A stretch of DNA of 64,000 nucleotides from Candidatus Omnitrophota bacterium. Its GTDB lineage: Bacteria; Omnitrophota; Gorgyraeia; Gygaellales; JBFMHM01. The notes under the pieces were generated by a model, which saw only the letters and a list, made by a program, of their open reading frames with translations, was not told the origin of the DNA and did not search any database. The stretch covers positions 83,463 through 147,462 of the forward strand of contig JBFMHM010000003.1 in the NCBI GenBank assembly GCA_040753015.1, written 5' to 3'. This document shows positions 3,113 to 40,560 of the stretch, piece after piece. Made by a program: the position numbers and the translations under genes. Numbering within the stretch: the stretch's first letter is position 1; every line of letters begins with the position of its first letter.

Positions 3113-4345
3113 CTACTGTTTAATGAATCCTTTAATTAACTCCAAATTAGCCTGGCTTGCGCCTCGATTATTTTTTAATAACTCTTTTGCCCTAATCCCT
3201 AGTTTTAATCTTTCATCAGTATCTTTGATTAATCTTCTTACTGCAAAATATAGCTCACTATAATCTCCCACAACAATTAAAGCATTGTTAGCTTTAAACA
3301 ATTCTACGATATCACGAAAATTGAAATAATGCCGGCCGATAATTATTGATTTCCCAAAAAATGCTGGTTCTAAAATATTTTGCCCCCCTCTTTTAACAAG
3401 ACTCGCACCAATATATACAATATCAGAAATTGAGTAAATAAGCGGCAAAATACCCAATACGTTAACTAAAAATACGCCGTTCCCAGAAATATCGTCTAAG
3501 GTTTTTACCTCTTTAACATAAAGTTTGAATTTAATAGAAATTAATCTCTTCAATTGGGCATTCCTTTCAATATGCCTAGGCGCAATTAATAAACGAAGAT
3601 TCGGAAATTCTTCTGCTAATTTCATAAAACAAGATAGTATACCAGATTCCTCCCCAAGATGGGTACTGCCACAAGTAAGCAGAATTTCATTATCAGCAAG
3701 CCTTCTCCTAATATTAGGATCTTTTTGCTGTATATCAAATTTCATATTCCCTATAACCTTAACTTTAGATATTTCTACTCCTAAAGAAATAAGCCTTGCC
3801 GCATCAGCTTGGGTTTGCATGGAAAACAAATGGATTCTATCCAGAATATTTTTAAATAAAAATTTACAAAAATGATACTTGTTATATGACCTATCTGAAA
3901 TTCTGCCGTTTATTATAACTATCGGAACTTTTCTTTTGTCTAATTGAATGATAAAATTTGGCCAAAATTCTGTCTCGACAATAATAACAAGCTTCGGATT
4001 TATCAATCTAATAAATCTAGACACAATAAAACTTAAATCAAATGGTAAATAAAATATATAATCAATACCTGGCAACCTTTCTGCTAACCTATTGCCTGTC
4101 GGAGTAACCGTCGAGATTACTAAAGAAAAATTGGGAAACTCATTTTTTAATCTCGGTATAAATTCTCTTAAACAATTCACCTCGCCAACGCTTACTGCAT
4201 GCAACCATATTGTTTTTTGGTTTTGTTTTCTTAACCCCAGGCCTAGCCGCTTTAAAAAATGCCTGCCGATTTTTTTCTTTAAAAAAGATAAAGACAAATA
4301 AAACACAAAACCAATTATAAAAATTAAATCATAAATTATAAGCAT
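3113..4345 (-). CDS. waaA: 3-deoxy-D-manno-octulosonic acid (Kdo) transferase
   Basis: N-terminal IWLHAVSVGEV motif of WaaA/KdtA; ~410 aa; sits between lpxK and the xerC-like gene. Confidence 0.8.
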   Translation of the reverse strand: MLIIYDLIFIIGFVFYLSLSFLKKKIGRHFLKRLGLGLRKQNQKTIWLHAVSVGEVNCLREFIPRLKNEFPNFSLVISTVTPTGNRLAERLPGIDYIFYLPFDLSFIVSRFIRLINPKLVIIVETEFWPNFIIQLDKRKVPIVIINGRISDRSYNKYHFCKFLFKNILDRIHLFSMQTQADAARLISLGVEISKVKVIGNMKFDIQQKDPNIRRRLADNEILLTCGSTHLGEESGILSCFMKLAEEFPNLRLLIAPRHIERNAQLKRLISIKFKLYVKEVKTLDDISGNGVFLVNVLGILPLIYSISDIVYIGASLVKRGGQNILEPAFFGKSIIIGRHYFNFRDIVELFKANNALIVVGDYSELYFAVRRLIKDTDERLKLGIRAKELLKNNRGASQANLELIKGFIKQ

Positions 4346-4346
4346 A

Positions 4347-5207
4347 TTATGCTCTCGGGTGAGCTTTTTCGTAAATCTTCTTCAATCTATCAGTGGTCAG
4401 GTGAGTATAAATTTGAGTTGTCGACAAATTGCTGTGCCCCAGTAATTCCTGGACTGAACGTAAATCTGCCCCTCTATTCAATAAATGTGTTGCAAAAGAA
4501 TGCCTTATGCTATGAGGAGAAAGCCCATTCTTTAAAGAAACCTTGTGAATATATTTTACAACAATACCTCTTATCCCGCGCAAGCTAATCCGCCGGCCAT
4601 TTTTATTTAAAAATACTGCCTGATTAGTATTATTTCTTCTATCTAAATATTTTTTAATTGCAAAGGTTGCCTTATCGCCAATTGGGACAAGCCTTTCTTT
4701 TTTGCCTTTACCCCTGACTTTTATCACAGACCCGATAAAATCAATATCTCTGTTATCCAAACCTGCAACTTCAGATATACGCATTCCTGTAGAATAAAAT
4801 GTTTCAAGTATTGCCCTATCACGCATAACTAAGATATCATTACCTTCGGGTGCTTGGACTAATCTTGTTGCTTCATCCTCGGTTAAAAACTGCGGTAGGT
4901 GTTTTTCTGATTTAGGGCTTAAGATACTCATTGCCGGATTATTTTTTAATATTCCGTCCTTAGTTAAAAATTTAAAGAAACTTCTAAGACATGACAACTT
5001 TCTTGAAATCGTGCGCTGTAATAAATTTTTGCTTTTAAGCAAGGCGAGGAACCTACGTATTGCTAAATAATCTATTTTCTGTATATCAATTTCCCCAAGA
5101 AAATTTTTAAATTCTTCAAGATCAATCTTATAATTTAAAAGCGTGTGTGCTGATGCACCCTTTTCTATTTCTAAATAGCGAATAAATTTTTCTATATACC
5201 TATCCAT
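4347..5207 (-). CDS. Tyrosine recombinase XerC/XerD family
   Basis: C-terminal catalytic region HSFATHLL...GHSNLSTTQIYTH with the R..H..R..Y arrangement; ~286 aa. Confidence 0.75.
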   Translation of the reverse strand: MDRYIEKFIRYLEIEKGASAHTLLNYKIDLEEFKNFLGEIDIQKIDYLAIRRFLALLKSKNLLQRTISRKLSCLRSFFKFLTKDGILKNNPAMSILSPKSEKHLPQFLTEDEATRLVQAPEGNDILVMRDRAILETFYSTGMRISEVAGLDNRDIDFIGSVIKVRGKGKKERLVPIGDKATFAIKKYLDRRNNTNQAVFLNKNGRRISLRGIRGIVVKYIHKVSLKNGLSPHSIRHSFATHLLNRGADLRSVQELLGHSNLSTTQIYTHLTTDRLKKIYEKAHPRA

Positions 5208-7182
5208 TATCTTTCAGTTGTTCTGGTAGGTTATTAGCTATATAATTACATTTAGGAAAATTACTGCAACCATAGAATACACCTCTGCGCGACCTACGCT
5301 CAACAAGCTCACCACCACATCCTTCATTAGGACATTTAACGCCCGTAGTAATACTTTTTGAGAACTTACATTTTGGAAAATCTGGGCAGCTTAAGAACCT
5401 GCCGCGCCTGCCCCATTTAACAATTAAATTTTTTCCACAATCAGGGCAAATTTCATTTGTCTGGACTACTTCTTTTTCAATCCCTTTATAGGCAGCATCA
5501 AGCGTATCCTTAAAAGGCGCGTAGAAATCACGAATCAATTTTACCCAATCAAGCTTACCTTCTTCAACCTCATCAAGATCATCCTCCATATGCGCCGTAA
5601 ATTTTACATCCATAATTTTTGGAAAATTCTCTACCAATAAATCAGATACCTTTATGCCGAGGTCTGTTGGTTGTAAATATCCTTTTAAACGGTTAACATA
5701 TTGCCTAAAAGTTAAAGTTTGAATAATTGGGGCATAAGTGCTAGGACGGCCAATACCATCTTCTTCTAATTTTTTGACTAGCGAGCCTTCGGAGAATCTA
5801 GCTGGTGGCTTTGTAAAATGCTGACTTGGTGTTAATTGCACTAAATTCAATTTTTCTTTTTTCGTTAATTCTGGTAATTTGTTCTTTGTTTCATCTTCTT
5901 CAATATCATAAGCAGCGGTAAAACCTTTAAACTTTATTTGCGATGCGCTTGCCTTAAACAAATATTTACCGGCAATAATTTCAATTGAATATAGTGAATA
6001 TACTGCGGGCTTCATTTGTGAAGCAATAAATCTCTTATAAATAAGTTCATATAGCTTAAATTGATCTTTATCTAAAATTTTCTCTAATTCTTCTAACGAT
6101 AAATCAAGCGCTGTTGGACGAATTGCCTCGTGCGCTTCTTGCGCTGACTTCTTTGCCCGATATATATTTGGTGATTCGGGCAAATATTCTTTGCCATATG
6201 TTTGGGAGATAAAATTTCTCACTGATGCAAGCGCTTGATCATTTACACGAGGAGAATCTGTTCTCATATAAGTAATCAAACCAAAAGCTCCCCTGCCTTC
6301 AATTTCAATGCCCTCATAAAGCTCTTGAGCCATCTTCATCGTTTTTGCCGCACTAAACCTTAGTTTATTGAAGGCATCTTGTTGCATAGTGCTTGTGATA
6401 AACGGCGCATAAGGGTTACGCTTCTTTTCACTTGCCACAACATCACTAACAACAAATTCTTGTTTTTTGATATCTTCAACTACTTCATCTGTAATTTGTT
6501 TACTATCAATCTCTACTTTTTTATTTTCGATCTTTTCCAATCTTGCTATAAAAGTTTTGCCTTTTTCATTTTTACCTTTACGCGTTTCTAATTCTGCTTC
6601 GATTTGCCAATATTCTTGTGACTTAAACGCTAATATCTCTTTTTCTCTTTCAACGATTAATCTTAAAGCAACTGATTGCACTCGCCCTGCACTTAAACCT
6701 CTGACTACTTTTTTCCATAAAAGCGGGCTTAAGAAATAACCCACAATTCTATCTAAGACACGGCGAGCTGTTTGTGCATTAACCATATCTGGATTTAATT
6801 TAAGCGGGTGTGCAATTGCTTCTTTAAAGGCATCTTTTGTAACCTCGTGAAAAATAAGCCTGAAGAATCTTTTTGACTTTCCGTCAAGATTTTGCATTAT
6901 ATGCCAACTAATTGCCTCACCTTCCCTATCAGGATCAGTTGCCAGATAAATAATATCATTATTTTTTACCTGTTTCTTAATCTCGGAAAAAATTTTTTTC
7001 TTTAAAGTGATTATCTTATATTCTGGCTTAAAATTATCTTCTAGATCAACACCCAAACTTGATTTTGGTAAATCGAATACATGGCCGCCTGAAGCAATAA
7101 TCTTATAATCCTTACCTAAAAATTTACCGATTGTTTTTGCCTTTGTTGGAGACTCAACTATAATCAATAATTTTTCGCTCAT
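5200..7182 (-). CDS. topA: DNA topoisomerase I
   Basis: TOPRIM N-terminus LLIIVESPTKAKTIGKFLG, ~660 aa, C-terminal Cys-rich zinc-ribbon repeats (CPDCG..., CPNEGCGG...). Confidence 0.85.
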   Translation of the reverse strand: MSEKLLIIVESPTKAKTIGKFLGKDYKIIASGGHVFDLPKSSLGVDLEDNFKPEYKIITLKKKIFSEIKKQVKNNDIIYLATDPDREGEAISWHIMQNLDGKSKRFFRLIFHEVTKDAFKEAIAHPLKLNPDMVNAQTARRVLDRIVGYFLSPLLWKKVVRGLSAGRVQSVALRLIVEREKEILAFKSQEYWQIEAELETRKGKNEKGKTFIARLEKIENKKVEIDSKQITDEVVEDIKKQEFVVSDVVASEKKRNPYAPFITSTMQQDAFNKLRFSAAKTMKMAQELYEGIEIEGRGAFGLITYMRTDSPRVNDQALASVRNFISQTYGKEYLPESPNIYRAKKSAQEAHEAIRPTALDLSLEELEKILDKDQFKLYELIYKRFIASQMKPAVYSLYSIEIIAGKYLFKASASQIKFKGFTAAYDIEEDETKNKLPELTKKEKLNLVQLTPSQHFTKPPARFSEGSLVKKLEEDGIGRPSTYAPIIQTLTFRQYVNRLKGYLQPTDLGIKVSDLLVENFPKIMDVKFTAHMEDDLDEVEEGKLDWVKLIRDFYAPFKDTLDAAYKGIEKEVVQTNEICPDCGKNLIVKWGRRGRFLSCPDFPKCKFSKSITTGVKCPNEGCGGELVERRSRRGVFYGCSNFPKCNYIANNLPEQLKDNG

Positions 7183-18648: not shown

Positions 18649-19455
18649 TCAAAATTTGGGTTTAATGCTATATTTCTCTATAAGCAGCGGAATTGTTTGT
18701 TTGGCATTTACGATCAAATCTGCTTCGGTTTCTTCGAATAAAAATGGCCTAAGCGTTTCAGCTTGTTTTTTTAATTCATCATTAGAAAAATCCTCTATTC
18801 TTTTTATAATGCTATCTAAGGGGTTGGATTTAATCCCTAATGCCCTCAAAACATCAATATTAATTGGATACTTATTGGAAAGCATAAACATAATATCATA
18901 AATATGCCTTGCGCGATTTTTCTTATTTAAAGCATCTATTTTATCCGCAAATAACGCTCCTTTTTCCGTGCATATACAAGGATATAGCTCACCAAAGGCG
19001 GATATAAGTTGGGTGTCTGGCTTTATTTCCCATTTAGGATTATTGGTTTCTACTTTAATAATAATACCTGATTTTTGTGAATATTTAGATATAACATTAT
19101 ATGATTTTTCAATATCAGGAAAAATTAATTTTGAAACATAAATATTATCCCAATGGCCAAATTCCAGCGCTAATTTTATTCCAACGCGTTCTAATTCTAT
19201 TTTTATTTTTTTTAAAATACCCTCGAATAAAACTCTATCCATATTGCTTGCATTAAAATCCAAATCCTCAGAAAATCTCTTTAGATTATGCACCAGTCTT
19301 AAATAAGTTCCGCCGGTGAAAAAAAGCGATTTGGTTTGTTTGTATAATTCCTTTAATACTAGAACCTGTAAATACTCCCTCAAAATTCCTCTAACTTTAC
19401 TAGTAGGCATTTGTCTTACCTTGGCTTGCTCTATTAAAGAATCATAGGTTAGCAT
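18649..19455 (-). CDS. Nucleotidyltransferase AbiEii/AbiGii toxin family (DUF1814) of a type IV toxin-antitoxin system
   Basis: Hallmark motif GGTYLRLVHNLKRFSEDLDF; ~268 aa; overlaps the upstream AbiEi-like gene by 14 nt. Confidence 0.7.
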   Translation of the reverse strand: MLTYDSLIEQAKVRQMPTSKVRGILREYLQVLVLKELYKQTKSLFFTGGTYLRLVHNLKRFSEDLDFNASNMDRVLFEGILKKIKIELERVGIKLALEFGHWDNIYVSKLIFPDIEKSYNVISKYSQKSGIIIKVETNNPKWEIKPDTQLISAFGELYPCICTEKGALFADKIDALNKKNRARHIYDIMFMLSNKYPINIDVLRALGIKSNPLDSIIKRIEDFSNDELKKQAETLRPFLFEETEADLIVNAKQTIPLLIEKYSIKPKF

Positions 19456-20053
19456 AAATCAACTCCTTTAGGTTAAGCTTATAAATTTGCGCGTATTTAT
19501 CCAATTTTTTCTTCTTGAGATTGGAAATAATATCTCTATCAAGCCTCTCTTCTTCAAAATTAAATTTTTTATTGCGATAAGTTTTAAAATATAAATAATC
19601 CACTAATGCTTTTTCCGGTTCAGCAATAAAAATATCAAAGTTTCCCTGTTTTTCTACATAATAACCGCAAAATGCCTCTGGCTTAACTGTACGATAGGTA
19701 AAAAGGCCGTGTTTATTTTTAAATTTACGCGTAGATTTTGTAGTAACAGAAGTTACACTCATAGCAACTTCGGAAATAATACTATAATTAGATAGAGCTG
19801 TCTCTAGAGACACATAAGATGGCGCATACAATCTATTTGCAATATAAAAATCCGGAATATTGAAATCTCTGGGGTAGCTTAATTCGTAACACTCTTTCTT
19901 TAAAGCAGTTAACCAGCCCTTCTCTTTCCATCTAGAAATCATTTTCTTAAGATTGATTTTATTTTCTTTGGGAAAAAATGCTAAAGTATCTTTAAAAGAA
20001 AAAAGGTAATATTTATTTTGCTCCAATTTTCCGTATAAATCATGGAATTTCAT
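19442..20053 (-). CDS. AbiEi-like antitoxin / transcriptional regulator (COG5340 family)
   Basis: YVSLETALSNYSIISE and IAEPEKALVDYLY motifs typical of AbiEi; directly upstream of, and overlapping, the AbiEii gene. Confidence 0.55.
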   Translation of the reverse strand: MKFHDLYGKLEQNKYYLFSFKDTLAFFPKENKINLKKMISRWKEKGWLTALKKECYELSYPRDFNIPDFYIANRLYAPSYVSLETALSNYSIISEVAMSVTSVTTKSTRKFKNKHGLFTYRTVKPEAFCGYYVEKQGNFDIFIAEPEKALVDYLYFKTYRNKKFNFEEERLDRDIISNLKKKKLDKYAQIYKLNLKELIYANL

Positions 20054-26100: not shown

Positions 26101-26772
26101 GGGGAGTTGTAGATACTCACTTTCCAGTAACACTTTCAGTGTTGATTTGGTTATTACACAGCTACCTTTTCCGTCTTCGTATACTTCTGCTTTGTCTGGG
26201 ACTATCCAGACACGGAAGGTTGTGGGAATACTAAGGGTTCGTCTGTTCTTCAGTTCGCCAGTTCGTCGGTTAGATAATTGTTTTGCCTTGGCAAATACAC
26301 GTTCCCAATAGGTAGTTGCTCCTGTAGATAATCCGGGAAATAGGCTAAAGGCTGTGTCTTTCTTAAGCTTTAGGTCTAGGAGTAGTAGATGCTTACCCAT
26401 GTCTGTGTAGGATAGATTAGTTCCTGTGAGCCTGTTAGGTTGGTTTGGGTTAAGGTTAACCCAGAATTCAGAGTCGTCTATTGTTAGAGCTGTTAGAAAG
26501 TAGTTTATGTTGGTCTGTAGGTTGTTACGTTGGTCTAGGGAAAGAATGGTGCCTTTGGGGATGTTTAGGTTGAATTGGATACCTGTAGAGACGCACTGCA
26601 GTGCGTCTCTACCATTTAAATCAATGCCCAATAATGTTGGGTTTAATTGCCCTGATGATATTTGGGTTATGTTTTGAAAACCATAACATAAGTGGTTAAA
26701 ACAAAAAATCCCTGCTAATAATAAGATAAATATACGTTTCATAGTTAAATTCATGATTAAATCAAAAATCAA
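20134..26772 (-). CDS. Giant secreted multidomain protein (2212 aa): signal peptide, two tandem zincin-like HExxH modules, long HEAT/PBS-lyase-like C-terminal region
   Basis: Single uninterrupted ORF with a hydrophobic N-terminus. Two HExxH sites, GHETFHA at aa 474-480 (nt ~25330-25350) and GHETGHV at aa 917-923 (nt ~24001-24021). Each is preceded by the same PTLEQ(A/V)L.F..GHE context and followed by E-rich ...EERLADIFG / ...EEDLCDLLG segments resembling thermolysin NEAISDIFG. The C-terminal ~1200 aa are helical repeats such as NPVIVEALIKAY...ALGRIADPATVEFLIKQL. Confidence 0.7.
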   Translation of the reverse strand: MIFDLIMNLTMKRIFILLLAGIFCFNHLCYGFQNITQISSGQLNPTLLGIDLNGRDALQCVSTGIQFNLNIPKGTILSLDQRNNLQTNINYFLTALTIDDSEFWVNLNPNQPNRLTGTNLSYTDMGKHLLLLDLKLKKDTAFSLFPGLSTGATTYWERVFAKAKQLSNRRTGELKNRRTLSIPTTFRVWIVPDKAEVYEDGKGSCVITKSTLKVLLESEYLQLPQTPSLPKRGIKGEFDNNQELQSYCEAQLKELILPNLTYKVNHDPSYESLRQIYNAIILAKWYKENVSAKGGPASGGKSQSEKLEELTNQRTDELKNAFSSIINTNNLNGLISKEPVTPQQIFAAYLDSVKQGEYHLSKTNYNEELKANIRRSYVSGGVNVTMPLSEIVAPGDVVKAFKIQKTNCKGVLTWNPETKQFEEQRALIHGLYVRTLDGKVIYVNKQSVQEHLSDFEPIFGFVPTLEQALRFLDGHETFHALIDNLKLQGNLLTEISETEEERLADIFGLAFALGQIAIPKDLEDELEKLDSILKGQLKQSLTTFLTTDASTLEERLTAIGLADVKVDTTKMPSELRIINEAVLKEGGISKTAVLSAMEMEEKCRLLAEQILASLFTNSQLTDPTQGRSHRTMMIEWPGDKIDLFQSIRNTILQYYPNMDTNMVDRIIAIVESRLEYIGDSSVTKGHSIWAKRDSSIVSGSLSESVQFAKKVLSLVFGDNVMIGVRGGISRIYEILKEKVENLCPGISRENLVYILDTLEMMIEQVGFQRDASGSRGIIIWRLKTTITYGNIHIEDASLNSEIPAIAARLHSARKRTGLASEITVNGVTLRCCGEEKIEDIVEQYEIGFRLLYRTLMLRNRIHGLFTRVMKVVEGITKYIRTIYIVNRNLLKKHLKDFRQYFNNNIPTLEQVLNFIQGHETGHVVIDYLEEKGISLEQIVKDAGINLNQLYSEKKTKKAKLKQLEEDLCDLLGIEFGRGGAAPNEALQKVINEIDKQLREKTGKEINFLTLLQTSDSTDLAQALKDILGIEVTVEYEKTRKGLLTLKQTTQSQKSGVVRTAEIPAASPQTLPVLAAAATSGISPMLQDLDLSKGLAYSEQRRRHLAYTLLDFRRMIRHAQAGSQEQRLILETALAYIDSETALLSRGVINNLTSSSLQELRLVFEYLVDVVNETITNGNIQDDFFVSLRDNLTLEQVSDTQTADNGTKAQRAGYFINRLGWNLRYIANRPIFVTNVELSTPGLAVVTEAITDERRSELQLQAAGILFEDYVVEARTTITALAIPEAQVSEDEEKPQELGIAKRVMDMFSPRNKAWPVTSLPLAQRLRTLLQEATCLTNSQRQEAFSQIALLISTNCNKEQAVRMLVNLTRQPDIQPAVLELLTYLDTETATLVFMGSFARTSDDVVSLITWLSFLDSARARLCFAQYKGTLTEEVLINLPLSCYVLAHMMETRIYKPYIAAIRTHLETEDKIAGLTTVNSLIALVDAIRQQGTVTKGQTETISFQKSIDDIEAIQTELSRSYDKLQKLKQQASVAATARTTDSDSPQQVYARELRRVSDICILGRLPADVVKALSGFAKAKGVVAFDLMVELIAVQEPQVIAIFINTLGQNQPRLAIVSYKLSDEVQCIEFLSLLLTKIDQDKAVETLDAMVNNQQLCHQGSRRLAERILLGPAIEAIDTMVAIHTELCKRDSRYNTELEFQLTGVLLAEDLTKGQREQAVKRCAQIIETTDYNWPKLKADFRVLIAMRTDPDQTRKDAITELGKIGTEEAVSVLLGRVEYAQAPTRRQQLPQDENKPEVLASLIQIANTHQESFTEKQYTKLKRLLQKDKDLEAIIVALSQAGNKVVIDLIIKDFEQAIYVRLKSGDLTRPLYEDTQSVFTKAFLEYVRCCFNPEIEQWANWRKDLINRLPKTDQAYCDKILFPFLEALGVPIRVSRVIRDLQVSNDVNKRMAIIRLFGRERNPVIVEALIKAYQDVMGKHAAETSYDDKIQEWKAIINALGRIADPATVEFLIKQLPYFKALGDSYDMESVIRTAIVKIDPAALLELQRTIDRIRANAKAPKLTEHQFSAAVLSPALKQELIAKLNGSDLLDAPITERAKQVIRILTSDKYYDEQSFDLLIAALNEIKAGIRVNLEGLHIAGDYKEILELVFKPLIDDLAAAKASDPNTTLEEMEVLAKAQSVSSKGQGAKTAPVTTGGIDLSQIQITIVG
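25873..25902. repeat. GC-rich double-hairpin element, copy B (CCCGCC-TGA-GGCGGG then TCCGCC-TTT-GGCGGA), in frame inside the giant gene
   Basis: Seen directly. Encodes SAKGGPASGGKS at aa 291-302 of the giant protein. Same orientation and reading frame as copy A. Confidence 0.6.
26077..26099. repeat. Nested GC-rich hairpin CCCCCTCTTT-GGTA-AAGAGGGGG (outer ACTCCCCC...GGGGGAGT) in frame in the giant gene
   Basis: Seen directly; encodes PSLPKRGIKG; strongly GC-rich against a ~30% GC background. Confidence 0.5.
26585..26612. repeat. Perfect 28-bp palindrome GTAGAGACGCACTGCAGTGCGTCTCTAC in frame in the giant gene
   Basis: Seen directly; encodes GRDALQCVST near the signal peptide. Confidence 0.5.
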
Positions 26773-26885
26773 AATGCAAAAATCAAAATTACAAATTAAA
26801 ATTCAAAATTAGATTCAAATACCCTAAAATCTTTAATTTTTGATATGTCATTTTGATATTTGATTTTTAATATTTGATATATTCT
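26758..26885. promoter_or_regulatory. AT-rich iterated motif block upstream of the giant gene (AAAATCAAAAT repeats facing TTTGATAT/TTTGATTTT repeats)
   Basis: Seen directly: at least 5 AAATCAAAA-type units at 26758-26820 and at least 4 TTTGAT(A/T)T units at 26838-26880, reverse complements of each other. Lies in the ~365-bp region 5' of the giant ORF. Confidence 0.3.
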
Positions 26886-26990: not shown

Positions 26991-27060
26991 GATCCCGAGT
27001 CATACGAGGGAACTATCATATAACCACTTTAAAATACTAGACTTAAGAATTACGCAGTAT

Positions 27061-27127
27061 ATTTATTTATTGCGTTTAGGTAGGCTTTAATTGAGGCTTC
27101 AATTACATCTGTTGAACTGCCGCGGCC
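27061..27127. repeat. Direct-repeat copy (~67 bp, ~90% identical) of the leuA 3'-terminal coding segment 28187..28253
   Basis: 27061-27115 is identical to 28187-28241 (55/55), then ~10/14 more bases match. This copy lies 10 bp beyond the yhcG-like stop, so the ~1.06-kb yhcG segment is bracketed by the repeats. Confidence 0.7.
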
Positions 27128-27137
27128 AATTTTAAGT

Positions 27138-28145
27138 TTATTTCACAATATTTAATTTTTTCGCCCAGTCTTTCGATGAGGGCAAATATTTTTTTAGCGT
27201 CTTTGGCAACGACTTATTTAAAGAATATGTCGAAACACCTATCGGTTTTTTAACATCCTTAAGGGCATATTCAACAACTGTACGGCTCTTACTTTTACAA
27301 ATAATAATTCCAATGGCCGGATTTTCTTCTTCAAGTTTATCCCGATCATTAAGCGCAGAAAGATAAAACTGCATCTTCCCAGCATACTCAGGTTTAAAAT
27401 CGCCGATCTTAAGCTCAATTGCAACTAAACATCTCAATTTTCTATGATACAAAAGAATATCCACGAAATATTCGCGGCCGTCAATCTCTATCCTATGTTG
27501 ATTGGTGATAAAACAAAAGTTTCCGCCTAATTCCAGCAGAAACCGCCTAACATTTACCATGAGTGCCCGCTCCAACTCATTCTCCAAATGCTCATCACCC
27601 AATTCCAAAAAATCAAATGTGTACTCATCCTTAACAGCGAGTTTTGCTTGATTTCGAATATTAACGGGCACTGTTTTGTCAAAGCTAGTCTGATTAAGAA
27701 GCGTTTTATCGTAAGACTGATTCTCGATTTGATGAATAAGAACATCTTTCGTCCACCCGAACTTCTTAGTCATGTTGATATAGAAAACGCGCGCTTCTTC
27801 TTTCTTGCACTGGCTCATAATAACCAGATGTTTCGCCCAACTAATTTCTCCAACCAATGGTTGGAGAATTAAGCTCCCTTGATATTCTCCATAAAACTGC
27901 CTCATATACCAAAGATTCTGCGACGAAAAACCCTTGATTCCCGGAAATTCCTTTTGTAAATCTTGAGCTAATGTTTCAACAATCGCCTTACCCCACCCAA
28001 ACTCTTTTTGCTTCTCAATAATCCTTCTCCCAATATCCCAATAAAGCGCAATAAGTTCTTTATTAACAACTTTTAATGCTTCATATTGCGAAGAGCGAAC
28101 TCGTTCTTTAATATCCTCAAGAAAAAACTTATAATCACTATTCAA
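27138..28145 (-). CDS. YhcG/DUF1016 family PD-(D/E)xK nuclease
   Basis: N-terminus (...YEALKVVNKELIALYWDIGRRIIEKQKEFGWGKAIVETLAQDLQKEFPGIKGFSSQNLWYMRQFY...) matches the conserved YhcG-N/DUF1016 pattern. The C-terminal region has a PD-(D/E)xK-like core (IGIIICK...). Confidence 0.65.
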   Translation of the reverse strand: MNSDYKFFLEDIKERVRSSQYEALKVVNKELIALYWDIGRRIIEKQKEFGWGKAIVETLAQDLQKEFPGIKGFSSQNLWYMRQFYGEYQGSLILQPLVGEISWAKHLVIMSQCKKEEARVFYINMTKKFGWTKDVLIHQIENQSYDKTLLNQTSFDKTVPVNIRNQAKLAVKDEYTFDFLELGDEHLENELERALMVNVRRFLLELGGNFCFITNQHRIEIDGREYFVDILLYHRKLRCLVAIELKIGDFKPEYAGKMQFYLSALNDRDKLEEENPAIGIIICKSKSRTVVEYALKDVKKPIGVSTYSLNKSLPKTLKKYLPSSKDWAKKLNIVK

Positions 28146-28175
28146 TTTTAGCTTCGTAATGTCCTCGCTTTTATG

Positions 28176-29681
28176 TTAAACGACTAATTTATTTATTGCG
28201 TTTAGGTAGGCTTTAATTGAGGCTTCAATTACATCTGTTGACGAGCCACGGCCAAAGATTTCTTTATTTTTTATAGTTAGTTTTAGCGTTACTTCCCCTT
28301 GAGCGTCTTTACCGTGAGTTACCGCAGAAATTTTATAGTCAGAAAGTTTTGGTGTTAATTTAGTAATTTTATCAATTGTTCTAAAACAGGCATCAACCGG
28401 ACCATCCCCCGAAGACTCTGCACAAACATTCTTTCCTTCAAATTTTAAAATAATTGCGCTTTTTGGTTTGATCTTATTACCTGAAGTTATTTCAAAACTT
28501 TGCAATTTATAGATTTCTTTAACTTTTTTTATTTCTTCATCTAAAATAATCAATAAATCATCATCAAAAATTTCTTTTTTCTTATCGGCAAGATCTTTAA
28601 ATTTTATAAAAGCCTCATCAATTTGTTTTTGGCTTAATTTAAATCCTAATTTTTCAAGGCGGCTAGTAAAGGCATGACGGCCAGAGTGTTTTCCAAGCAC
28701 AATTCCTTCAATAATAAAACCGACATCTTCAGGGTTAATTATTTCATATGTTGATGCCTCTTTTAATACACCGTCCTGGTGAATTCCTGACTCATGACGA
28801 AAAGCATTTCCACCAACAATTGCTTTATTCCGCGGAACCTCAAAACCCGTAAGTTTACTAACCAAGCGAGAAGTCTTGCAAATTTCTTTTGTATTGATCG
28901 TTGTATATAAATTTTTGAATATGTTTTTCTTTACCCACATCGCCATAACTATTTCTTCTAAGCTTGCGTTTCCTGCGCGCTCACCAATACCATTAATAGT
29001 ACATTCCACTTGGCGCGCCCCATTTAAAACTGCACTCAAACTATTTGCACTAGCAAGTCCTAAGTCATTATGACAATGCACAGAAATAACTACCCTATCA
29101 ATATTAGGCACATTATTTTTTATATCACGAATAAGTTCGCCAAAACCCTGCGGCTCAGTAAAACCAACGGTATCGGGAATATTTATCGTTTTTGCACCAA
29201 CATCAATTACAGCTTCTACGACTTTATACAAAAATTCTTTTTCTGTCCTTGCCGCATCTTCTGGAGAAAATTCAATATCGTTAATATATTTTTTCGCATA
29301 TTTTACACTCTCAACTGCCAGGCGCAAAATTTCATCTTTAGCCTTATTAAGCTTGAATTTTCTATGAATTGGGGATGTTGCTAAAAATACATGTATACGA
29401 GGACGCTTTGCTTTTTTAACAGCCTGATATGCCGCGTCTATATCTTTACGGGTTGCACGCGCTAAGCCGCACACGCCGCATTTTTTTATTTTCAAAGCAA
29501 CAGTCTCAACCGCCTTAAAATCTCCTGGGCTTGCAATAGGAAAACCTGCTTCAATAATATTAACCCCTAAGCGCTCTAACTGTAAAGCAACTTCAAGCTT
29601 TTCTTGAGGGTTTAATGCTGCGCCCGGCGCCTGTTCTCCATCACGCAGAGTCGTATCAAAAATAACTACTTTTTCATCCAT
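28176..29681 (-). CDS. leuA: 2-isopropylmalate synthase
   Basis: N-terminal [11 protein letters not shown] and HxH motifs (HCHNDLGLA); ~500 aa with the LeuA dimerisation/regulatory C-terminus. Confidence 0.85.
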
Positions 29682-30706: not shown

Positions 30707-31264
30707 TTATGAATGGAATCCGATTATTCTTCTTTCTTTATCTGACGACGGTTCCAATAATTGTTTAATAGCCTGAAAAACTATTACAAACTGCTTATCG
30801 TACTTTCTCTCCATTTCTTCAATCTTACGTTTAAGACTCACATTAGTTAAAAGCATGCGTCTTAATTGCGCAAAGGCACGCATAATTTGAATATTAACCA
30901 TAATTGCGCGCTCGCTATTCAGTACACTTGAAAGCATCGCTACGCCTTCCTGTGTAAAAACATAGGGAAAATATCTTCTTCCTCCTCGCTTTGAGGTCGC
31001 ATTTTGCGACCTCAAAAAATCCGCTTCTTCTTCTGTAAGTTGGAACATAAAATCTTCTGGAAATCTCTTTTTATTCCTTGCTACCTGCTCATTAAGCCGT
31101 TTTGTCCTTACTTCATAAAGTACAGCTAAATCACTATCTAACATTACCCTTTTACCGCGAATAATTAAAATCTTTGTGGCTATCGCTTCCGTCGGAACTA
31201 AATTAGACATACCTATTTCCCCATCGATTTTTATTGTTCGTGGCCTGGTCCACTCATGACACAT
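30707..31264 (-). CDS. ORF6N-domain (KilA-N-like) protein
   Basis: IRGKRVMLDSDLAVLYEVRTKRLNEQVARNKKRFPEDFMFQLTEEE...RGGRRYFPYVFTQEGVAMLSSVLNSERA is a textbook ORF6N domain. The real start is probably the internal Met at ~31210. Confidence 0.65.
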   Translation of the reverse strand: MCHEWTRPRTIKIDGEIGMSNLVPTEAIATKILIIRGKRVMLDSDLAVLYEVRTKRLNEQVARNKKRFPEDFMFQLTEEEADFLRSQNATSKRGGRRYFPYVFTQEGVAMLSSVLNSERAIMVNIQIMRAFAQLRRMLLTNVSLKRKIEEMERKYDKQFVIVFQAIKQLLEPSSDKERRIIGFHS

Positions 31265-31731
31265 TCTTTACAATTAATGGCTTCTTGAAGGACATTTGTT
31301 ACTTCCTTACTGTTAATCATATATTTTCTTTTTCCTCCGGAATCCATTTTCAAATTAGTTGTTTGACCATTTTCTGATTTAATAGGCATAGTATCTCTAT
31401 ATTCTTGAACCATGGCTTTTACAAATTCTGGCGATAATTTGCATTCCATCTTACCACCACCTGGTAATTCTTGAATATAATGGCACCTATCTCCTTCCTT
31501 GCCAATTATCTCTCTTGTAAGCGTCTGCCCGCTGAAAGGATCCATAGTTTTACATTTAAAAGGCTCACCTTTTTCTAATTTATCTGGAAATTCTTTACAA
31601 TATTCTCCCGAAAGAAGCTTCATTTGTTCTTCACTTATAGATATTCCTTCTTGAGCTTCTGCAAAATAGAAACAAACAAGAAAAAGCAATATCACTATAT
31701 TTAAACAAATTATTTTTTTAAACATCTTCAT
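31231..31731 (-). CDS. Hypothetical secreted Cys-containing protein
   Basis: Signal peptide; 6 Cys including a C-terminal CKEC pair; no recognisable domain. Confidence 0.4.
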   Translation of the reverse strand: MKMFKKIICLNIVILLFLVCFYFAEAQEGISISEEQMKLLSGEYCKEFPDKLEKGEPFKCKTMDPFSGQTLTREIIGKEGDRCHYIQELPGGGKMECKLSPEFVKAMVQEYRDTMPIKSENGQTTNLKMDSGGKRKYMINSKEVTNVLQEAINCKECVMSGPGHEQ

Positions 31732-33938: not shown

Positions 33939-34787
33939 TTATTTGATTTTTAATAATTTATTATTCTGCGAATGCGCAAGATAATTCTGTTTACTAATTA
34001 CGCTCTTGCCAGTTTTATGCTCGAGTTCAATACGCGCATTTTTAGCGATCTTTCCGCCTTTTACAGCAGGAACTTTATTTTCTTCTAATCCATCAGCACC
34101 AATCGTTTCTGCAATTTGCCGAGTTGAAAGTTCAGCAAGAGCAGTAAAGATAAGCTCTGCTTCAGTCATATGATCGCGTAAATTTTCAGTTTTCAATTTT
34201 TTTAATTGTTTATGCTGTTTTATGGATAAATCACTCCATTCTTGATGAATAATATTAGTTAATATGGCATATTCATCCTGTTCTTTTACATCGTGATTTT
34301 TCCAATAATCAGTTAATTTATTTCTTGTTTCCTGGCCCATCATCCTTTGCTGAATCCACTTTTCGCTTCGCCCTAATTTTTGCCAATATTCCCGCGCACG
34401 ATTTAATGATTTTTCTGGATCGGAAATTTCTTGTATTCGTTCATGCCCAACTTTGGCAAGCCATAACTTAATAGGTTCGGCTTTTGGACTAGGCACAGAC
34501 TGAATTACGCGAAACAGGGTTTGAATATCTGCCAAATCCGTAAAACGCATTTTTCCATCTTCGGCCTTTAATTTCAAACGGTGACATTTTGTCACCGCTT
34601 CACTGCCCTCTTTACGAAGCCGCTGCGAAAGCTTATTCCAATATTTTCTCGCAGTTTGATAATCAAGTTGACCTGTTAAAACTTGAACAATATCAACCAC
34701 GGAAAAATACCATTTTTCTTGTTTCTCATCCCAAATTCTTCTAATTTTTCTGCCTTGAAAAATAGCAACTTTATTATCTTTTTTCAT
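33939..34787 (-). CDS. DinD-like DNA-damage-inducible protein with N-terminal Bro-N domain
   Basis: The N-terminus (IRRIWDEKQEKWYFSVVDIVQVL) has a Bro-N pattern. The C-terminal KQHKQLKKLKTENLRDHMTEAELIFTALAELSTRQ closely parallels the E. coli DinD conserved block. Start is 1 nt after the ilvD stop. Confidence 0.6.
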   Translation of the reverse strand: MKKDNKVAIFQGRKIRRIWDEKQEKWYFSVVDIVQVLTGQLDYQTARKYWNKLSQRLRKEGSEAVTKCHRLKLKAEDGKMRFTDLADIQTLFRVIQSVPSPKAEPIKLWLAKVGHERIQEISDPEKSLNRAREYWQKLGRSEKWIQQRMMGQETRNKLTDYWKNHDVKEQDEYAILTNIIHQEWSDLSIKQHKQLKKLKTENLRDHMTEAELIFTALAELSTRQIAETIGADGLEENKVPAVKGGKIAKNARIELEHKTGKSVISKQNYLAHSQNNKLLKIK

Positions 34788-36457: not shown

Positions 36458-37459
36458 TTATACCAACTCAAACTGTGATTGAGATATCTCTTGTTTATTT
36501 TCTTTTCTATAAAAAAGACTCGATTCTTTTTCTTCGTCAATTTCCTTTAACCTTCTATCTGCTATCTTCACATATTCACTATTTGCATCTATCCCAATAT
36601 ATTTCTTCCCTAATATTTTAGCCGCAACAGCCGTAGTCCCACTCCCAACAAAAGGATCTAAAATTATAGCATCCCTAGAGAAACTAGAAATCTTTATTAA
36701 ATATTCGCAAATGGCTAATGGTTTTACAGTCTTATGCGTATTATAACCCCCTTTTTCTTTTTTCGTCGGTTTTGGCAAAAGAAAAGTTTTATCTATAAGT
36801 TCATTGATGCCCTGTACCGTAAAAACATTTGCTGGATACATATTGTTACCAATTTTAACCCTAGTATTTAATAACCCTACTTGGTGCTCCAGGATATTAT
36901 TCAAATATGTCTTATCTACGGGTTTTTGAGCCAATGCTATAGGTTCGAAGCAAGATTTAATCTGTGGAGTCTTCCAACCACTCAATCTTTCTTTAATTTT
37001 ATTTCTTGTCTTAATATCTGTATCCATTTTTTCTATTAAATGATCAAGGCCCATTGCTTTTGCTTGATTCTGCGTATAAAGCCACATAAAAGCATCTCTT
37101 ATTTCAAACCCAGCGTCATCGATAGCCGATGCCATCCTATGATAAAGCCGCGGGCTAGAAAAAGAAAAGAAGAAACCCCCTGGCTTTAAAATTCTAAAAA
37201 TCTCTTTTGAAATTTCAAGATACCAAATATAGAATCTCTTGCCTTGCTCTCTATCAAATTTCATTCCCGCAGGTAAAGATTTTATAGTATATTGATTGCT
37301 GTCATCGGAAACCTGCTCATAACTCCAGTTATTATCCAACTTATCTAAAAAATATGGGGGATCGGTCAAAACAACATCAATAGAATCTGTTTCTAGTTTT
37401 AGTAATATTTCTATTGCATCGGCGCAAATGATCCTATTAATAAAATCTCTATTCTTCAT
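36458..37459 (-). CDS. DNA methyltransferase (N6-adenine/N4-cytosine, beta-class, DPPY motif)
   Basis: Motif IV VVLTDPPYF near the N-terminus and motif I DPFVGSGTTAVAA near the C-terminus, the circular permutation typical of beta-class amino-MTases. Confidence 0.75.
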   Translation of the reverse strand: MKNRDFINRIICADAIEILLKLETDSIDVVLTDPPYFLDKLDNNWSYEQVSDDSNQYTIKSLPAGMKFDREQGKRFYIWYLEISKEIFRILKPGGFFFSFSSPRLYHRMASAIDDAGFEIRDAFMWLYTQNQAKAMGLDHLIEKMDTDIKTRNKIKERLSGWKTPQIKSCFEPIALAQKPVDKTYLNNILEHQVGLLNTRVKIGNNMYPANVFTVQGINELIDKTFLLPKPTKKEKGGYNTHKTVKPLAICEYLIKISSFSRDAIILDPFVGSGTTAVAAKILGKKYIGIDANSEYVKIADRRLKEIDEEKESSLFYRKENKQEISQSQFELV

Positions 37460-39569: not shown

Positions 39570-40544
39570 TTATCTTAATGTATCTAATAAACTATGATAC
39601 CTTGCTAATTTTATTTTTTTCTTTTTTATTGCGGTTTTAAAATCAACAAATATAATTTTTCCATCTTTTGTGCCAACTACTTTATTAAATTCACCTTGGC
39701 ATAAGCAATTTATTGCTGCATGGCTTAAAATTAAAGCTATCGTCCTGCTTAACGCCGTAGGCCTACCGCCGCGTTGAATGTGACCTAAAACAATCGCACG
39801 AGTCTCAAGGCCTGTAATATCATTAATTTTTTTCGCTATATCTTGTGCCTTTGCCGCACCCTCTGCTGTAATTATAATCCAGCTTATCTTTCCTCTAATA
39901 TTGCCTTCAACGATATTATCACAAATTTTATCAATATCAACTTTATGTTCTGGAATTATAGCATCTTCGCAGCCACCGGCTAAAGCGACTTCAAGCGCAA
40001 TAAAACCACAATCCCTACCCATAACCTCGACAACAAAAACCCTTTCCATAGAAGTTGCTGTATCCCGTATATTATCAATTGCCATAAGAGCAGTATTAAC
40101 AGCCGTGTCTGAACCAATCGTAATATCAATACCATTAACATCATTATCAATAGATGCAGGAATGCCAATAGAAGGAACTTTAAAATTTTTATAGAAAGAA
40201 TGTGCGGCTGTAAAACTACCATTTCCCCCAATAACCACTAAAGCATCAATAGAATGTTTTTTTATAACTTCGTACGCTCTTTTTTGACCATCTTTTGTGT
40301 GAAACTCTTTAGAACGAGCGGTCTTTAATATCGTGCCACCTTGATTAATAATCCCTGAAACAGAACGATGATTAAAGAATTTTAGATCCTCATTCATCAA
40401 CCCTGCCCAACCACGAAATACCCCCATTACTTCTATCTTACTAGATAAAGCACATCTAACAACTCCACGGATAGCCGCATTCATTCCTGGAGCATCCCCG
40501 CCAGTAGTTAGTACTGCAATACGTTTTATTTTTGATTTTTGCAT
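39570..40544 (-). CDS. pfkA: ATP-dependent 6-phosphofructokinase
   Basis: GGDAPGMNAA, VIGGNGS and VMGRDCGFIAL signatures. Confidence 0.85.
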   Translation of the reverse strand: MQKSKIKRIAVLTTGGDAPGMNAAIRGVVRCALSSKIEVMGVFRGWAGLMNEDLKFFNHRSVSGIINQGGTILKTARSKEFHTKDGQKRAYEVIKKHSIDALVVIGGNGSFTAAHSFYKNFKVPSIGIPASIDNDVNGIDITIGSDTAVNTALMAIDNIRDTATSMERVFVVEVMGRDCGFIALEVALAGGCEDAIIPEHKVDIDKICDNIVEGNIRGKISWIIITAEGAAKAQDIAKKINDITGLETRAIVLGHIQRGGRPTALSRTIALILSHAAINCLCQGEFNKVVGTKDGKIIFVDFKTAIKKKKIKLARYHSLLDTLR

Positions 40545-40560
40545 TTTGATTATTGATTTT

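Follow-up and report, generated by a model that had tools for sequence, protein, structure and literature searches.

Restriction and restriction–modification genes are known to enter genomes by 'insertion with long target duplication', which involves no mobility gene, leaves direct repeats longer than 30 bp and has no established mechanism (Nobusato 2000, Gene 259:99; Furuta, Abe and Kobayashi 2010, PMC2853133). The class also includes a lone mcrA homologue from Burkholderia sp. 383 (PMC2993543). Known since 2000, the phenomenon has been described in only a handful of cases and its mechanism is unsolved. Here we present a yhcG gene that lies behind the 3′ end of leuA in a 64,000-nucleotide (nt) stretch of Candidatus Omnitrophota DNA (contig JBFMHM010000003.1; hereafter, the window), taken from a metagenome-assembled genome (MAG), and that is bracketed by two copies of the leuA 3′ end. 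The reading that we favour, at about an even chance, is that of a promoterless cassette, roughly the size of one open reading frame (ORF), which came to the leuA 3′ end through homologous recombination as a case of insertion with long target duplication. This phenomenon is already described; new here are the family-wide enrichment of repeats and the allelic signature of the repeat copies.

Prophage e14 and phage 21 integrate into the 3′ end of icd, supply a replacement end with silent differences and leave the displaced native end as a pseudo-copy. These are elements of ~20 kb with an integrase and a fixed attP, whereas the insert here is 1 kb, lacks a recombinase and has repeats that differ between loci. 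The free-standing homing endonucleases of T-even phages (seg and mob; intronless homing) are lone nuclease ORFs between conserved genes, patchy in distribution, whose flanking alleles are co-converted. They leave no target duplication. No target sequence common to the yhcG insertions is evident, and YhcG does not belong to a proven homing family. Integron cassettes resemble yhcG in being promoterless, ORF-sized, co-oriented, sometimes tandem and spread across domains, but yhcG has neither attC nor IntI, and its flanking repeats copy the target gene instead of being sites carried by the cassette.

In PADLOC, yhcG is the candidate defence gene PDC-S02 and ORF6N is PDC-S05. Both families are 'embedded' in type I or type III restriction operons, and embedding has been used to predict defence in a paper in which the words duplication, recombination, DUF1016 and PDDEXK do not occur (bioRxiv 10.1101/2024.01.29.577857). 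Unlike these embedded genes, the window's yhcG has as its host the ilv–leu operon, which is not a defence system. Our literature search found no paper linking DUF1016/YhcG to flanking target duplications.

A duplicated leuA 3′ end brackets yhcG

The repeat search returned one family of direct repeats at this locus (27061–27143 and 28187–28269; 83 nt, 88% identity, spacing 1126 nt). The first 55 nt of the two copies (27061–27115 and 28187–28241) are identical and correspond to leuA codons 481–498 plus one base. By blastn self-comparison, the pair is the sole direct repeat at E < 1e-3 in the 64-kb window (E = 2.6e-24). leuA, yhcG and their neighbours here all lie on the minus strand, as follows.

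27050–27060, minus: alternative leuA tail (YTA, TAA stop), continuing the frame of copy B and as long as the LVV tail
27061–27143, minus: repeat copy B, displaced pseudo-3′ end of leuA (core 27061–27115)
27116–27127, minus: GRGS codons of copy B, differences from copy A synonymous
27138–28145, minus: yhcG, 335 amino acids (aa) (DUF1016_N 2e-45, YhcG_C 5e-60)
28146–28172, minus: yhcG leader remnant, ~27 nt, with GAGGA ribosome-binding site (alignment to related Omnitrophota)
28176–28186, minus: tail of the intact leuA, last three codons plus stop (LVV), outside the repeat
28187–28269, minus: repeat copy A within functional leuA, about codons 471–498 plus one base (core 28187–28241)
28176–29681, minus: leuA (2-isopropylmalate synthase), intact ORF of 501 aa (Pfam HMGL-like 5e-95, HCS_D2, LeuA_dimer)

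The original prediction, made from the letters alone, had placed a ~67-bp repeat of the last ~25 leuA codons around yhcG. The bracketing repeat is confirmed, as are 55 identical base pairs, but the homology runs beyond 67 nt through the GRGS codons, perhaps as far as 27143 beside the yhcG stop codon, giving 83 nt in all. As for the codons, the core covers 481–498 and the final LVV codons and stop lie outside the repeat. As had been proposed, leuA is kept intact through the second copy of its 3′ end, and the ORFs between or beside the repeats include no integrase.

Copy B begins 3 nt past the yhcG stop codon. Between the copies, 27144–28186 (1,043 nt) comprises yhcG itself, ~30 nt of leader and the leuA tail, and ORF and Pfam annotation revealed there neither a second ORF with a family match nor an integrase. 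The 3′ junction reads AAATAAA and the 5′ junction is an A/T-rich stretch.

Set against the definition of Furuta et al. (2010), the repeats exceed 30 bp (83 nt with the 55-nt identical core), and the insert is smaller than 20 kb and free of integrase and transposase genes, yhcG being its only gene in 1,043 nt. The definition also asks for restriction and modification homologues within the insert, where the window has a lone nuclease gene; the solitary mcrA case has been admitted to the class (PMC2993543). The likeness thus lies in a nuclease-type gene, in variable direct repeats of more than 30 bp that copy the target, in near-identical copies and in the lack of a transposase or integrase. The differences are that YhcG comes without a methylase, that a housekeeping gene is the target, at its coding 3′ end, and that the copies bear a two-allele signature (synonymous differences and alternative tails).

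Other classes of element were compared in the same way. For an integrative element bounded by attL and attR, neither a tyrosine or serine recombinase ORF between or beside the repeats nor a common att core was found. Homing endonuclease genes come without a target duplication, and here a long one is present. The attC palindrome of an integron cassette (about 57–141 bp) was not found, nor any inverted repeat at the cassette ends. There are no terminal inverted repeats of the kind expected of an insertion sequence or transposon, and the duplication is 83 nt and imperfect.

The repeat copies are two leuA alleles

Mismatches between the copies number 0/55 in the core versus 10/28 past it (Fisher p = 5e-6). 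In the GRGS codons next to the core, 8 of 12 nt match, all eight of them G or C in a genome of 35% G+C (chance about 1e-6). The differences beside the core (CGT/CGC and TCG/AGT) are all synonymous in the leuA frame. Each copy closes with its own three-codon tail and TAA stop, LVV in copy A and YTA in copy B, and both types of tail occur among LeuA homologues, many of which end in NKYAL, NKYVA or NKYAF while others continue as NKLVY or NKLVC. Judged from their sequence, the repeat copies are apparently the junction of two diverged functional leuA alleles and not the outcome of uniform decay. Decay of a duplicate in situ is disfavoured because a three-base switch between serine codon families (TCG/AGT) adjoins 55 unchanged bases. 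Which of the two tails (LVV or YTA) is native can only be inferred.

yhcG is inserted behind leuA

yhcG is an insertion, since none of 80 related leuA loci carries it. These loci come from metagenomes and share 53–67% aa identity with the window's LeuA; yhcG is absent within 4 kb in 80 of 80, and a second leuA 3′ end of the window's kind was found in none. The claim of an insertion is therefore borne out, and the observation named as its refutation, related genomes all carrying yhcG together with the duplication, was looked for and seen in 0/80. An empty site in the sense of Furuta et al. (2010), a related genome that has the repeat once and no insert, was sought among these 80 loci; they are free of yhcG but reach no more than 67% aa identity. 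ilvC is nearby in 56 of the 80 and ilvN in 42, and the ORF6N and Bro-N genes of the window's operon are likewise missing from all 80.

Window proteins including LeuA match Candidatus Omnitrophota MAG proteins at 100%. The closest LeuA among 5.8 billion proteins has 70% aa identity and none reaches 90%, the best metagenome locus standing at 67%; exact-protein look-ups of the window's YhcG and LeuA returned no record. No empty site can be reconstructed because the organism has no close sequenced relative in the collections searched.

Target duplications recur across the yhcG family

We surveyed 80 yhcG loci (one genome per species; 60–87% aa identity to the window YhcG) from Omnitrophota, Elusimicrobia, Nitrospirota, Planctomycetota, Bacteroidota, Cyanobacteria, Desulfobacterota and several archaeal groups. 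The 700 nt upstream of each gene were compared with the 700 nt downstream at a threshold of at least 40 bits; the controls were pseudo-genes set at fixed steps elsewhere in the same loci, not matched 'embedded' genes. Flanking repeats were found at 16/74 yhcG loci versus 9/794 control positions (odds ratio 24, p = 2e-12), so that the search originally proposed, for other yhcG copies flanked by duplications of their target, uncovered a recurrent arrangement. About three quarters of yhcG loci have no flanking repeat. By inspection and Pfam, about a dozen of the repeats reproduce where the adjoining gene begins or ends, and the targets are mostly restriction–modification genes.

L076: hsdM 3′ end plus hsdS start
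L047 and L049: hsdR start
L052: hsdM 5′ region, 165 nt, 81% identity
L007 and L040: start of type III res
L021: end of an Eco57I-like enzyme gene
L045: segment of the hsdM 3′ end
L067: pyrF 3′ end, 44 nt, a housekeeping case like the window

At L067 the real pyrF tail ends in KEMNKDISRAIV and a stop (DISRAIV), and the pseudo-copy behind yhcG ends in KEMNKEINGVIGK and a stop (EINGVIGK); the two are homologous, diverged and open to the stop. Pooled over repeat pairs with a defined frame, 23/39 differences fall at third codon positions (p = 9e-4) and 19/32 differing codons are synonymous (p = 4e-5) versus random, the counts being small. The repeats vary by locus in sequence and in length (about 20–165 nt), and the ends of the cassette are not conserved.

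Some cassettes stand in tandem, each after a copy of the same target start. Two yhcG genes precede hsdR in L047 and L049, and in L007 yhcG and then a Bro-N gene precede res, with three copies of MKLHFD.... The target copies that flank yhcG in L007 also flank its Bro-N gene, which has no nuclease domain; the nuclease therefore need not be the driver, although action in trans could still apply. In the same locus, the displaced res starts at 5930–5972 and 7009–7051 each form a 13-codon mini-ORF (MKLHFDSNRQKFF and MKLHFDPNRQFRF, each closed by a stop), after which come a ribosome-binding site and the cassette ORF; translation of the cassettes may be coupled to the captured res start. A comparison of L047 with L049 as proof of separate cassette transfer was dropped, the loci being 94–99% alike overall.

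Some repeats are not target duplications. In L001, L017 and L025 they are a leader or promoter element shared by successive genes, in L022 the repeat may be an hsdS shufflon, and in L037 whole paralogues lie on either side. Searching at the protein level for older duplications that had decayed yielded next to nothing beyond the nucleotide hits. Among 2.9 million viral contigs there were only 10 yhcG relatives, none with flanking repeats, and the plasmid collection held no occupied/empty pair: the IncHI copy lies behind an integrase, and the Ralstonia MolK2 copy has neither a repeat nor a comparable record. The flanking target duplications in bacteria and archaea suggest that 'embedded' yhcG genes spread without a recombinase of their own.

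Two further settings of the gene were seen. On the Escherichia coli IncHI plasmid NZ_CP031135.1 (L167, 4748–7008), a distant yhcG (36% identity) overlaps the end of a tyrosine integrase gene by 4 nt and radC is next; this same yhcG gene is present on many large enterobacterial plasmids. In several genomes of DPANN archaea and Omnitrophota, yhcG sits within gene arrays in which the same lineage-specific element of 35–80 nt precedes each gene (L017 at 1396, 3053, 4962 and 6371; L025 at 3726, 4677, 5907 and 7005; L029 at 3193, 3644, 4873, 5905 and 7040; also L005 and L043). The archaeal element resembles a BRE/TATA promoter with a GGTGA ribosome-binding site. These arrays are cassette-like, and none of their annotated ORFs encodes an integrase.

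Closest relatives and a truncated leader

The window cassette shares 76–85% nt identity (up to 89% aa) with its closest relatives, over 28172 to 27139. DNA similarity to L081 and L082 begins at 28172, 4 nt past the leuA stop, and ends at the yhcG stop codon. In Omnitrophota relatives a conserved leader of ~95–130 nt precedes yhcG, of which the window retains only the last ~27 nt; its 5′ junction cuts inside a leader that the relatives carry whole and is not a fixed cassette end.

In Omnitrophota the same leader is found ahead of yhcG, Bro-N and ORF6N genes and of an unannotated 481-aa ORF (L001 at 1727–1856, 3418–3497 and 4416–4512; L085 at 2009–2095 and 4883–5012; L081, L082 and L086 at 4883–5012). 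It contains an inverted repeat (TTTCTTGCGT/ACGCAAGAAA) around promoter-like −35 and −10 boxes, with one apparent compensatory change, G:C to A:T, in L081 (by eye). The leader contains GTTAGAT and was considered as an attC or integron site, an idea dropped when no partner box was visible by eye in the displayed flanks; by eye it reads better as a −35/−10 promoter with an operator-like inverted repeat. Neither this region of the window nor the loci with the leader had an Rfam match. Contigs L081, L085, L002, L013 and L038 end inside yhcG or at or within ~120 nt of its stop, as would be expected if the gene or its flanks were repeated or strain-variable in those metagenomes.

The YhcG protein and its expression

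YhcG is a predicted PD-(D/E)xK nuclease of the YhcG/DUF1016 family (Pfam PF17761 and PF06250). Both domains are full-length and above gathering score (DUF1016_N, 154.6 bits, 1–137 of 137; YhcG_C, 202.4 bits, 3–157 of 157). Of the catalytic residues, D229 and K246 never vary among 32 homologues, and conservation of E244 is at least 90%. An AlphaFold2 (AF2) model built with 32 close homologues has the order alpha-beta-beta-beta-alpha-beta, but the predicted local distance difference test score (pLDDT) of the nuclease domain is below 50, and from this poor model we draw nothing beyond the general fold class. Foldseek gave no match at E ≤ 0.001, only weak ones to MGME1, Cas4, Bax1 and XisH. A sequence search returned no solved structure for YhcG, and a literature search no biochemical study of it. 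In one phage test, a PDC-S02 representative gave no protection against T4, T5 or T7, and a PDC-S05 representative protected (bioRxiv 10.1101/2024.09.26.614923).

Relatives start at an ATG where the window has ACG; its first possible yhcG start is TTG at 28145. The promoter and terminator scan between leuA and yhcG stayed at background level, with no promoter above it, and yhcG would be expressed by read-through from the co-oriented ilv–leu operon.

How the cassette may have arrived

In the reading that we prefer, the cassette would have arrived linked to the 3′ fragment of another leuA allele, and this fragment would have recombined with the resident leuA inside the 55 bp of perfect identity. 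Entry could be by a single crossover of a looped-out circle that carries the cassette and one repeat copy, or by a one-ended, homology-anchored insertion whose other end was joined at a short A/T microhomology. Either would leave an intact leuA with a new LVV tail, then yhcG, then the displaced leuA end with YTA. Host homologous recombination would do the work and the element would need no recombinase of its own; the repeats would also permit loop-out, so that the unit could leave and re-enter orthologous targets. The predicted empty site is leuA, core and ATACTGCGTAA, and the predicted circle junction runs from the yhcG stop through ACTTAAAATTGGCCGCGGCAGT, the core, TAGTCGTTTAA and the leader to the yhcG start. 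Homologous recombination of a cassette-linked target fragment would explain why the copies are allelic, why the target stays intact, why repeat length varies and why cassettes stand in tandem, and it is to such a fragment that the allele-like copies point, as a testable prediction.

Several points weigh against it. Homologous entry leaves arrival at new kinds of target unexplained, and such arrival must be frequent because close yhcG relatives sit in unrelated contexts; moves from one target to another must therefore rely on a different, non-homologous step. That diverged alleles share 55 identical nt calls either for selection on such a stretch or for gene conversion afterwards. There is no empty site to compare with (the best leuA relative has 70% aa identity), and no donor with yhcG next to leuA was found in 86 yhcG loci or 80 leuA loci. 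The leader is cut at an A/T-rich stretch and the 3′ junction lies at AAATAAA, and both could be microhomology joins made de novo.

Just such joins are at the heart of one rival, in which an illegitimate insertion would have duplicated 83 bp in situ between A/T microhomology ends, and the leuA body would later have undergone an allelic replacement that stopped inside the repeat. The junctions at AAATAAA and AAATAAAT-like stretches and the truncated leader agree with this. So does the identical core beside a diverged left part, because the cassette interrupts homology and a tract from a yhcG-less donor must stop before it. However, copy A's different LeuA-like tail of exactly equal length is left unexplained, as are the homologous but diverged tails of L067, and two independent events would be needed at each of several loci; we regard this history as doubtful. 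Somewhat less doubtful, though still unlikely, is a step driven by the nuclease, in which YhcG would cut the target (a homing-like double-strand break or widely staggered nicks) and repair or fill-in would copy the cassette and make the long duplication; the neighbouring Bro-N and ORF6N cassettes could then move in trans. The only enzyme in the repeat-bounded unit is a predicted PD-(D/E)xK nuclease with conserved D229, E244 and K246, flanking repeats are enriched about 20-fold at yhcG, the protein keeps 60–87% aa identity across phyla and archaea as a selfish gene would, and the tested PDC-S02 representative did not protect against T4, T5 or T7. DNA breakage has also been proposed by Kobayashi's group as the common cause of such insertions. 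Yet the targets are unrelated in sequence with no single recognition site evident, known homing leaves no duplication, the repeat copies are allelic instead of identical, a Bro-N cassette without a nuclease domain shares the same flanks, about three quarters of yhcG loci lack a repeat, and the distant IncHI yhcG is coupled to a tyrosine integrase instead. The stronger proposition, that YhcG itself drives an ORF-sized mobile element with no recombinase, making the break or widely staggered nicks at gene boundaries, we hold to be improbable; if true, mobility driven by YhcG would explain how 'embedded' defence-candidate genes enter bacterial and archaeal operons.

A recombinase acting in trans is less likely than either a nuclease-driven step or de novo insertion. 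Site-specific insertion, whether by such an enzyme or as the remnant of an integrase-bearing island, with the repeats as attL and attR or integron-like sites, would suit the promoterless cassettes in co-oriented tandem arrays, the distant IncHI yhcG that overlaps an integrase gene, and L022 with its truncated integrase and hsdS repeat; the layout is also like that of prophages in icd, where the element brings a replacement 3′ end. It is very unlikely all the same, as no recombinase lies in or beside the insert, each locus has repeats of its own sequence and length that equal its local target, and copy B, 3 nt past the yhcG stop, leaves no room for attC and there are no inverted repeats; the window junction, moreover, falls within the leader and not at a fixed cassette end. 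The attL/attR-like signature that the original prediction had seen here is not supported, given repeats at 20 or more loci that are unrelated in sequence and equal their local target, and cassette ends that are not conserved. An assembly artefact, for example two strains joined as a chimera through a k-mer that they share, or a chance similarity, is highly improbable. The window does come from a MAG and several related contigs end at yhcG, but the junction of the yhcG stop with the mid-gene fragment of leuA must exist in some molecule for any assembler, the layout recurs in more than a dozen independent assemblies, and chance similarity is excluded by E = 2.6e-24.

The yhcG family supplies many natural instances of insertion with long target duplication, in bacteria and archaea, in restriction operons and occasionally in housekeeping genes. 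The locus is also relevant to the prediction of defence genes by 'guilt by embedding': yhcG, ORF6N and Bro-N are embedded here in an amino-acid biosynthesis operon, so embedding may reflect cassette movement as much as function.

Other features of the neighbourhood

The ilv–leu operon holds three types of cassette that accompany yhcG elsewhere. Besides yhcG itself, an ORF6N-domain gene (30707–31264) and an unannotated ORF of 166 aa (31231–31731) lie on the minus strand between ilvN and ilvC; both are absent from the 80 related leuA/ilvC loci and no direct repeat flanks them. A Bro-N domain gene (33939–34787, minus strand) lies between ilvD and ilvB and starts 1 nt past the ilvD stop; homologues of it adjoin yhcG in L007, L025 and L086. 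An orphan N6_N4 DNA methylase gene (36458–37459) is directly upstream of ilvD. The 64-kb search found no repeats around the window's ORF6N, 166-aa ORF, Bro-N or methylase genes.

Further away, an AbiEii toxin gene with an overlapping upstream ORF without a Pfam match (18649–20053) lies downstream of a 2212-aa ORF. A 30-nt inverted repeat (97%; AAATCAAAAATCAAAATGCAAAAATCAAAAT) at 26759–26788 and 40530–40559, 13.8 kb apart, brackets the yhcG–leuA–ilv–pfk block, the other copy lying just upstream of the phosphofructokinase gene and the first at the start of the 2212-aa ORF. A perfect 14+14-nt palindrome (GTAGAGACGCACTG/CAGTGCGTCTCTAC) at 26585–26612 also falls within this ORF, in its 5′ part.

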